The position numbers were made by a program, and so were the translations under genes. 12,751 nt of DNA from a virus (lineage: Duplodnaviria; Heunggongvirae; Uroviricota; Caudoviricetes): positions 1 through 12,751 of IMG/VR virus record IMGVR_UViG_2778261068_000001; one strand, 5' to 3'. This document shows positions 10,988 through 11,015 of this stretch, one piece after another. The notes beneath the pieces were generated by a model. That model was not told where the DNA came from and searched no databases. It saw only the letters and a list, made by a program, of their open reading frames with translations. Each line of letters begins with the position of its first letter. The stretch's first letter is position 1.

Positions 10988-11015
10988 AAAATAAAAAAAC
11001 CCGCCAGCGGCGGGT
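10988..11015 (-). terminator. Intrinsic terminator-like hairpin directly upstream of the major tail gene
   Basis: Minus strand ACCCGCC-GCT-GGCGGGT (plus 10999-11015) followed by TTTTTTTATTTTC, then AGGAG and the V ATG. Confidence 0.6.

Follow-up and report, generated by a model that had tools for sequence, protein, structure and literature searches.

The closest described counterpart of the junction reported here is found in phage HK97, in whose GenBank record (AF069529 / NC_002167) positions 6692..6719, lying between gene 11 and the major tail subunit gene 12, are marked as a 'putative terminator'. Seven putative terminators are annotated along the late operon of HK97. In the record of HK106 the orthologous site is labelled 'rho-independent terminator', and a 'terminator' feature lies under the match to our sequence in the records of mEpX1, HK446, HK633 and mEp234. 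A late-operon terminator has also been discussed in the phage L genome paper, which names partial termination and the stopping of spurious, non-antiterminated transcription as its possible roles, and in which its role is stated not to be known. The late promoter of lambdoid phages fires constitutively, and transcription from it goes on only once Q has made the polymerase terminator-resistant (PMC7547250).

We describe here a hairpin with an adjoining T-tract in a stretch of 12,751 nucleotides of a tailed phage (IMG/VR record IMGVR_UViG_2778261068_000001, positions 1 to 12,751; hereafter the window), and argue that it is probably a Rho-independent terminator which is bypassed by Q-modified polymerase.

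Results

Gene content of the window

All genes of the window are on the minus strand and follow the HK97-head / lambda-tail order. From upstream to downstream they are as follows.

Upstream-most on the minus strand: end of the capsid gene
12475..12170, minus: head-tail adaptor
12161..11823, minus: head closure
11826..11377, minus: HK97-gp10-like neck protein
11036..11380, minus: tail terminator / tail completion protein, gpU-like, homologue of HK97 gp11, 114 aa; PF11367 (tail completion gp17), E = 5e-11; PHROG 'tail terminator'
10271..10975, minus: major tail (tube) protein, 234 aa, with a C-terminal Ig-like domain; phrog_158, E = 5e-108; PF13895, PF16460, PF06199
10271..9885 and 9873..9583, minus: G and T chaperone pair
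9542..6309, minus: tape measure
Downstream of the tape measure, minus: M-, L-, K-, I- and J-like genes

Neighbouring genes overlap or sit a few bases apart from the adaptor through to the tail terminator. Within the connector and tail gene cluster, non-coding sequence of any size is limited to the 60 nt that separate the tail-terminator gene from the major tail gene, and it is here that the hairpin lies. The window stops inside the head genes and contains neither the Q gene nor the late promoter. The first-pass annotation had placed a terminator-like hairpin between a gpU-like gene and the major tail gene, and the profile matches listed above for the two flanking genes bear this location out.

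Anatomy of the junction

The junction was read directly from the sequence and consists of the following elements.

11038..11036, minus: stop codon TGA of the tail-terminator gene
11016..11035, minus: 20-nt spacer from the stop of the gpU-like gene to the hairpin, GGTCGTTAATGATTTTACCC
10999..11015, minus: terminator-like hairpin, ACCCGCC-GCT-GGCGGGT
11015..11009, minus: 5′ arm of the hairpin, ACCCGCC
11008..11006, minus: loop of the hairpin, GCT
11005..10999, minus: 3′ arm of the hairpin, GGCGGGT
10998..10988, minus: T-tract (U-tract in RNA), TTTTTTATTTT, starting at the base after the stem and abutting the RBS
10973..10986, minus: RBS AGGAG (10986..10982), a 6-nt spacer and the ATG (10975..10973) of the major tail gene

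Positions 10988-11015, as originally proposed, thus span exactly the hairpin and the T-tract, and the arms ACCCGCC/GGCGGGT had been read correctly. A pattern scan of the window gave a stem of 7 pairs, 6 of them G-C, with a loop of 3 nt. A fold-energy calculation, which had been suggested as a check, came out in favour of the hairpin: its folding energy in isolation is -12.0 kcal/mol, and it is kept in the centroid structure of the 91-nt region, where only one small upstream helix accompanies it. The hairpin and the RBS of the major tail gene lie 13 nt apart, a single C separating TTTTTTATTTT from AGGAG on the minus strand. In a plus-strand reading GGGTAAAATC, which is no T-run, comes after the hairpin; the motif is therefore one-directional and works on paper only for the coding strand. 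The sequence features by which intrinsic terminators are recognised were all found, namely a GC-rich stem within the range of ~5-12 bp with a short loop, a U-rich tract of ~7-9 nt directly 3′ of the stem, and a position on the transcribed strand outside coding sequence.

An exceptionally strong RBS of the tail gene, offsetting the terminator, was considered and rejected. Its pairing with the anti-SD sequence (-7.4 kcal/mol) is weaker than that of three other genes of the cluster, the head-closure (-10.2 kcal/mol), M-like (-9.4 kcal/mol) and I-like (-9.3 kcal/mol) genes, in a comparison that is rough since two other start sites in the table are perhaps mis-assigned.

Searching the whole window with the Rfam covariance models returned 0 matches with an E-value up to 1; a scan of the window found no promoter-like minus-strand site near the tail-gene junction, and there is no ORF within the 60-nt gap. 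The first two results bear on the idea that the hairpin is the 3′ end of a small Hfq-binding RNA which derives from the end of the tail-terminator gene and acts in the lysogen. A GC hairpin with a U-tail is the standard Hfq-binding module, and late regions of EHEC prophages encode the Hfq-bound HnrS, which has an intrinsic terminator (PMC13502914). According to its description, HnrS lies within late genes, is confined to EHEC and EPEC, and is complementary to the mazF end (PMC13502914). The lack of a nearby promoter-like site and of any Rfam match speaks against such an RNA here, as does the region 5′ of the hairpin, which is not conserved; nor was complementarity to the mazF end, or any other property of the HnrS type, seen at the junction. 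We consider a small RNA very improbable. A link to HnrS itself was set aside on the same dissimilarity, with the reservation that the position of HnrS is not given in the text and that a link may exist for the orthologues of the junction in Stx phages.

Expectation by chance

A strict motif was defined as a stem of at least 7 bp with at least 6 G-C pairs, followed by at least 7 T in the next 8 nt. It occurs at 2 sites in the window, both on the coding strand, and in 500 dinucleotide-preserving shuffles it occurred at a mean of 0.002 per window. Chance origin of the hairpin together with its T-tract is excluded. A generic scan returned 25 terminator-like sites against 12.1 +/- 3.7 expected, among which the site at 10999..11015 is one of the two best; a loose definition of a terminator tells little. 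The fold z-score of the 91-nt region is -1.84, a whole-region value that is uninformative for a short local hairpin, and the motif-specific shuffle test was used in its place.

Occurrence of the junction and its orthologues

At 90% identity or more, the 221-nt junction is carried by 899 of 5,426 complete E. coli genomes, in each of them on the chromosome, and by 11 deposited phage genomes, including phi467 and Evi. The latter is 97% identical to the window over 1.7 kb around the junction. With the exact junction in ~1 in 6 complete E. coli genomes, experimental material is easy to find. The same pair of genes occurs at ~69% nucleotide identity in many Stx-converting phages (BP-4795, 1717) and in HK97 and its relatives. 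The site reads ACCCGCC-AGAT-GGCGGGT TTTCTTTTT CCAGGAGACAGCT ATG in HK97 and ACCCGC-CGCGT-GCGGGT TTTTTATTAT CAGGAGG in the BP-4795 type, and HK97 gp12 is 72% identical to the major tail protein of the window. Homologous flanking genes, an identical stem and a blastn match that joins the two regions indicate orthology with the gene 11/12 site of HK97.

Judged by this orthology, the hairpin is already known, its counterpart having been annotated since the HK97 genome was deposited, and it is an ordinary feature of an HK97-like E. coli prophage, a putative terminator. The arrangement had at first been taken to be unusual, a view which the existing annotation of the HK97 site does not support.

The gap is non-coding

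In the record of Evi the tail CDS (5090-5845) starts upstream of the hairpin, and ORF64 of BP-4795 is annotated from an in-frame GTG likewise upstream of it. If these starts were correct, the hairpin would be coding sequence and would specify an N-terminal extension of the major tail protein. The length of the T-run decides this. We compared ~77 prophage copies (68 distinct loci of a viral collection plus the Evi, BP-4795/1717 and HK97 records; tail proteins within the family are 97-99% identical), of which ~53 have 6 T and ~20, including the window, have 7 T. In the 6-T variants an upstream ATG is in frame with the tail gene, and the Evi start is possible only through its 6-T run, but in the window and the other 7-T copies the frame is broken. 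Following the frame of the window down from the preceding stop, one meets the ATG at 10975 as the first start codon. Between 6-T and 7-T copies there is no change in the RBS, the ATG or the protein N-terminus; all lineages keep the RBS, the ATG and an N-terminus of the form MS(A/S)..E(R/K)(S/T)Q, which does not hold for the supposed extension. Since a one-base polymorphism in the length of the T-run would be intolerable in coding sequence, the gap is non-coding and the true start is 10975. The coding reading, which we regard as practically untenable, was rejected on the T6/T7 frame break and the conserved ATG and N-terminus, and the start of the major tail gene is annotated too far upstream, through the hairpin, in the Evi and BP-4795 records. 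Among these ~77 close relatives the stem and loop are invariant and the flanks vary, including the spacer at 11016..11035.

Conservation and covariation in distant relatives

Six tail proteins were aligned, and the alignment was used to retrieve 68 loci from bacterial assemblies taken at one genome per species. These loci represent ~60 bacterial species (among them Serratia, Klebsiella, Enterobacter, Pectobacterium, Providencia, Proteus, Morganella, Xenorhabdus, Pantoea, Yersinia, Orbus, Salinicola and a Pseudomonas), with tail proteins that share 43-79% identity with the query. We searched the 110 nt that precede each tail gene for a perfect stem of 5 bp or more, G-T pairs being allowed and 3 or more G-C pairs required, and for at least 5 T in 8 nt, starting 0-2 nt past the stem. 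Hairpin and T-rich stretch were present in 62 of the 68 loci, with the stem ending 18-27 nt before the ATG, and the T-rich stretch lay 0-2 nt from the stem in every one of the 62. An alignment of 55 relatives showed that GGAG followed by the start codon is conserved, and the 14 nt 5′ of the stem are C/A-rich in the relatives, with 5% G.

The stems themselves are diverse. Among 63 distinct junction sequences we counted 23 distinct 6-bp stems (examples of stems are ACCCGCC, GCCGCC, GCCACC, AGCTGC, GACCGTC and AGCCACA), and single pair positions show G-C, A-U, U-A and C-G. A MAFFT alignment of the junctions, in which odd and even loop lengths were out of register and for which RNAalifold gave 5 pairs with many apparent mismatches, was replaced by a covariance-model alignment and by hairpin detection in each sequence. 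The covariance-model alignment was fitted to the structure by the model itself, and among its rows are 26 sibling terminators that are not orthologous. In it 92.3% of the cells are paired, a share that drops to 33-44% if the 3′ partner is shifted by 1-2 columns; in the junction-only rows (63 distinct) the value is 90.7%. Double-sided, compensatory changes were found in 6 of 6 modelled pairs, and the observed covariation score was reached by 0 of 500 column shuffles. This pattern shows that the hairpin is under structural selection across Enterobacterales.

Diversity of stems is also relevant to the proposal that the hairpin is a landmark for recombination or insertion, marking the boundary at which tail cassettes are exchanged and morons inserted. 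In blastn, the matches to mEp234, HK106, LAU1 and Klebsiella phages start precisely at the hairpin (query 386-388, window 11015-11013), lineages with no more than ~69% identity elsewhere share an identical stem ACCCGCC/GGCGGGT, and in a related locus (L107) a KilA-N gene is inserted between two copies of the junction terminator. However, 17 nt is very short for homologous exchange, the blastn boundary may merely reflect a faster-evolving spacer, and distant relatives keep the structure with different stem sequences, which points to a function at the level of RNA and not of DNA. A role as a landmark is, in our view, quite improbable.

The remaining 6 of the 68 loci, all from Xenorhabdus, are without the hairpin and have the short spacer TAACCC(T)GCCGGAGA..ATG. 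Since these six manage without it, the hairpin is dispensable for expression of the tail gene.

Hairpin and T-run are conserved together and always abut, the mark of intrinsic termination, and it is mainly on this ground that intrinsic termination is ranked first. An exonuclease barrier alone would need only the hairpin, and a U-rich translational enhancer only the U's. The U-rich stretch near the RBS could, for its part, be selected for translation and not for termination.

The chief rival is a mainly post-transcriptional device, a processing or stability boundary in the antiterminated late mRNA. It could take the form of a 3′ exonuclease barrier for the upstream segment with the connector genes, of a 5′-terminal hairpin on a stable segment with the tail and chaperone genes after cleavage in the A/U-rich spacer, or of a U-run that serves as an S1-binding or standby platform and boosts translation of the abundant tail protein. 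The closeness of the hairpin to the RBS, with the distance from stem to ATG held at 18-27 nt across the 62 loci, fits such a device, and so does the recurrence of the arrangement of hairpin, T-run, RBS and start before three other genes (see below). Where the upstream gene has been replaced (L127 compared with L123-126, and L107, L148 and L151), the hairpin remains with the tail gene. It is harder to reconcile with an exonuclease barrier, which needs no abutting U-run, that all 62 hairpins have one; in addition, the RBS pairing of the tail gene is not the best of the cluster, the six Xenorhabdus loci express the tail gene from a short spacer free of any hairpin, and the processing sites are postulated. 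As the main function of the hairpin we find a post-transcriptional role doubtful, but it may well be an added one.

Sibling modules along the late operon

The covariance model built from the tail-gene junction matches three further sites on the coding strand of the window.

9559..9574, minus: second module, AACCGC-TTCG-GCGGTT, followed by T8, GGAG and the tape-measure start; 27.1 bits with the junction covariance model; equivalent to the HK97 putative terminator 8398-8422
3946..3965, minus: third module, AAACCGCC-TCAG-GGCGGTTT, followed by an interrupted T-run, GGAG and the ATG of the J-like gene; found with the covariance model; equivalent to the HK97 putative terminator 15107-15129, before J
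469..488, minus: fourth module, GGGCGCC-AGAAAT-GGCGCCT, followed by TTTTTATTT, GGAG and an ATG, directly after the J-like gene; found by the scan and the covariance model

Sibling terminators thus occupy other gaps of the operon, as they do in HK97, and terminator-like modules tend to fill the intergenic gaps of such operons and are not specific to the tail protein. The special tie to the most abundant tail protein, which the first-pass annotation had implied, is not supported, as the same module stands before the tape-measure gene, before J and after J, and seven putative terminators are annotated in HK97. No other terminator site is filled nearly so regularly in the 68 loci as the tail-gene junction. 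Second in frequency is the position immediately ahead of the tape-measure gene, where a small additional gene often comes first; in a few loci the tail gene is itself directly followed by a terminator.

Evi and HK97 have a terminator after the capsid gene. The window carries at this position a very strong hairpin of 8 bp, all of them G-C, that has no T-run and looks like a pure stability element. Its presence implies that the operon uses stability hairpins and counts in favour of the post-transcriptional device discussed above.

Terminators stand at several module boundaries, namely behind the capsid gene in Evi and HK97, ahead of the tail and tape-measure genes, and on both sides of J, as would be expected of leaky attenuators. 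During lytic growth a fixed fraction of the late transcripts would end at the junction and at each of its siblings, so that mRNA declines stepwise and the ratios of head to tail proteins are set. Partial termination is also one of the two roles named for phage L. Against this, such an attenuator would cut transcription of the highest-copy protein of the tail, the objection which the first-pass annotation had raised; the predicted terminator is strong rather than marginal; and work on phage lambda has established that Q-modified polymerase is highly terminator-resistant. Attenuation in lytic growth is therefore unlikely.

Antitermination context

The context for antitermination is borrowed for the window from the annotation of its relatives Evi, HK97 and ST13-OXA48phi12.2. 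In Evi a gene for an 'antitermination protein Q' precedes those for holin, lysin, Rz, terminase, head and tail on a single strand, and HK97 has a 'Q protein' (Gp69) in the same place. In the Klebsiella phage ST13-OXA48phi12.2, which carries the hairpin, an 'antitermination protein' is encoded just before the holin genes. The presence of a Q gene upstream of the late genes in these relatives, together with the terminator resistance that Q confers, makes read-through by Q-modified polymerase the natural explanation of how the major tail gene could be transcribed. Multiple terminators within one operon are what a system of processive antitermination would tolerate.

Discussion

Taken with the hallmarks of the site, these observations lead us to propose, with a probability of roughly 0.6, that the hairpin and T-tract form a genuine Rho-independent terminator in an HK97-type lambdoid late operon and are bypassed by Q-modified polymerase. 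Unmodified RNA polymerase, coming from spurious promoters, from read-in or from the late promoter without Q, would transcribe the GC hairpin and the U-run and release its RNA ~20 nt before the major tail gene, and the tail genes would hence be silent in the lysogen. In lytic growth, polymerase modified by Q at the late promoter would ignore the junction and its sibling terminators, and the tail protein would be made. Its yield would then be set by translation, from a good RBS placed in U-rich, unstructured sequence. The hairpin would also fold in the read-through mRNA and there probably block 3′-to-5′ exonucleases, so that the long transcript would decay in segments. We infer termination, read-through and the effect on stability from the arrangement of the site, its conservation with the T-run and the Q genes of relatives.

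The proposal of the first-pass annotation that the hairpin is read through under antitermination thus appears to hold in its general part, fitting the hallmarks of a terminator, the joint conservation of hairpin and T-run, and the Q genes of Evi, HK97 and the Klebsiella relative; its link to the tail protein in particular is dropped. In the searchable literature we found no RNA 3′-end, RNA-seq or in vitro data for the junction or its orthologues, and nothing relevant on transcript mapping of HK97-like late operons. A fail-safe rationale leaves the consistent occupancy of the tail-gene junction unexplained.

Hairpin, U-run and RBS might form a dual-purpose cassette travelling with the tail gene, acting as an absolute block in the lysogen and, in the read-through mRNA, as a protective 5′ end and a landing pad for ribosomes. 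We think this improbable. If true, it would mean that a 'terminator' raises the output of the most abundant tail protein, that the block in the lysogen avoids waste or the triggering of host sensors of phage structural proteins, and that a long-lived processed mRNA covers the tail and chaperone genes.

A putative terminator before the most abundant tail gene is a standard property of HK97-type late operons, which are built around processive antitermination, and it matters little beyond correct annotation. The comparative data (the hairpin in 62 of 68 loci, compensatory changes in its stem and fixed spacing from the start codon) nevertheless make the junction a defined test case for the roles of terminators in late operons.

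Comparison with known systems

The gene 11/12 site of HK97 agrees with the junction in having the tail terminator upstream and the major tail subunit downstream, in the stem ACCCGCC/GGCGGGT, in a T-run directly after the stem, and in an RBS and ATG ~13 nt further on. It differs in detail: the loop is GCT in the window and AGAT or TGAT in HK97-type sites, the T-run is T7AT4 in the window and T4CT5 in the HK97-type site, and the spacer 5′ of the hairpin is not the same. A further putative terminator directly follows the tail gene in HK97; in the window that gene overlaps the chaperone gene.

Intrinsic terminators inside Q-antiterminated lambdoid late operons, such as that of the phage L / P22-type late operon, are likewise canonical, lie on the sense strand of an operon with a single late promoter, and are presumed to be bypassed when transcription is antiterminated. 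Phage L is, however, a P22-like podovirus, its terminator stands at the end of the procapsid module, and the sequences are unrelated.

Moron-associated terminators, such as that after HK97 gene 15, share with the junction a hairpin and T-run in the tail region. The junction was not classed as a moron: it separates two core virion genes, with no extra gene or ORF in the 60-nt gap and no promoter-like minus-strand site nearby.

Intercistronic hairpins that stabilise mRNA are known as REP-type elements (malE-malF) and as the 3′ hairpins left by RNase III in T7 mRNAs. Like the junction, these place a stable GC hairpin in an intercistronic gap of a polycistronic mRNA. They have no obligatory adjacent U-run, whereas the hairpin of the window type is conserved together with one.

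Start of the major tail gene and the sequence around the hairpin

In the records of two related phages the major tail gene is annotated to begin upstream of the terminator hairpin and to run through it, in Evi (5090-5845) from an upstream ATG and in BP-4795 (795-1640) from an upstream GTG, the latter start giving a 70-nt overlap with the preceding gene. Since the T-run after the stem is either six or seven T long among close relatives (seven in the window), and the ribosome-binding site and ATG beyond it are conserved, sequence comparison shows that these upstream starts are wrong.

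The base composition of the 14 nt 5' of the stem (window positions 11016-11029) was determined from the 52 distinct junction sequences of relatives in alignment A3. G was strongly depleted (A 38%, C 36%, T 21%, G 5%), and apart from this depletion the spacer was not conserved in sequence. Such a low-G spacer could prevent other pairings from competing with the hairpin; alternatively, it might serve to bind Rho or a protein.

Variation at the junction in relatives

In the Enterobacter intestinihominis locus L107, positions 677-1503 contain a gene for a 176-aa KilA-N domain protein between the tail-terminator and major tail genes. The terminator occurs twice here in near-identical form, once on each side of the inserted gene (CCCGCTCCGGCGGG T6 and CCCGCTTCGGCGGG T5). 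This gene looks like a moron inserted at exactly the tail-terminator/major-tail site.

The junction hairpin was absent from six Xenorhabdus loci (L147, L150 and L152-L155), where the gap between the two genes is about 15-35 nt, e.g. TAACCCTGCCGGAGA..ATG. A terminator-like hairpin was observed about 1.4 kb upstream in all of these except L147, presumably 3' of the capsid gene.

Mosaicism of the head module

Directly 3' of the capsid gene, the window carries the following features.

Features after the capsid gene
12699-12718, minus strand: 8-bp all-GC hairpin, GGGGCGCG-GAAC-CGCGCCCC, directly 3' of the capsid gene stop codon
12487-12675, minus strand: 62-aa ORF between this hairpin and the head-tail adaptor gene

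On the minus strand of the window no T-run follows this hairpin, and the 62-aa ORF had no match in Pfam. Evi, in contrast, has a canonical terminator at the same position, within a 76-nt gap. Phages phi467 and vB_EcoM-606R7 share the post-capsid segment of the window over its full length, and the Shigella phages SfI, SfII and SfIV share the first 150 nt of it; because of this sharing, the head module of the window is mosaic relative to its tail module.

Major tail protein and sibling modules

At its C-terminus the major tail protein (10271-10975) has an Ig-like domain, which spans residues ~154-233 (PF13895 / PF13927). Its counterparts in Enterobacter phage LAU1 and Morganella phage IME1369_02, homologous in other respects, are without this domain, and at many genome loci the tail-protein matches stop near residue 140-150, the Ig-like domain being absent. 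Downstream, the G-like and T-like ORFs (PF06222, PF06223; 9583-10271, minus strand) have, judged by layout, the usual arrangement of a tail-chaperone frameshift pair.

Three sibling modules, all on the coding strand, were identified in the late operon.

Sibling modules of the window
9559-9574, minus strand: hairpin, T-run, GGAG and start codon, preceding the tape-measure gene
3946-3965, minus strand: hairpin, interrupted T-run, GGAG and start codon, preceding the J-like gene
469-488, minus strand: hairpin, T-run, GGAG and start codon, 3' of J

Hairpin/T-run modules of this kind occupy nearly all the intergenic gaps of the operon.

HK97 has a second putative terminator between its tail and chaperone genes, whereas in the window the tail gene stop codon and the chaperone gene start form an ATGA-type overlap at 10271 (minus strand). 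The three sibling modules of the window have counterparts among the other putative terminators annotated in HK97.
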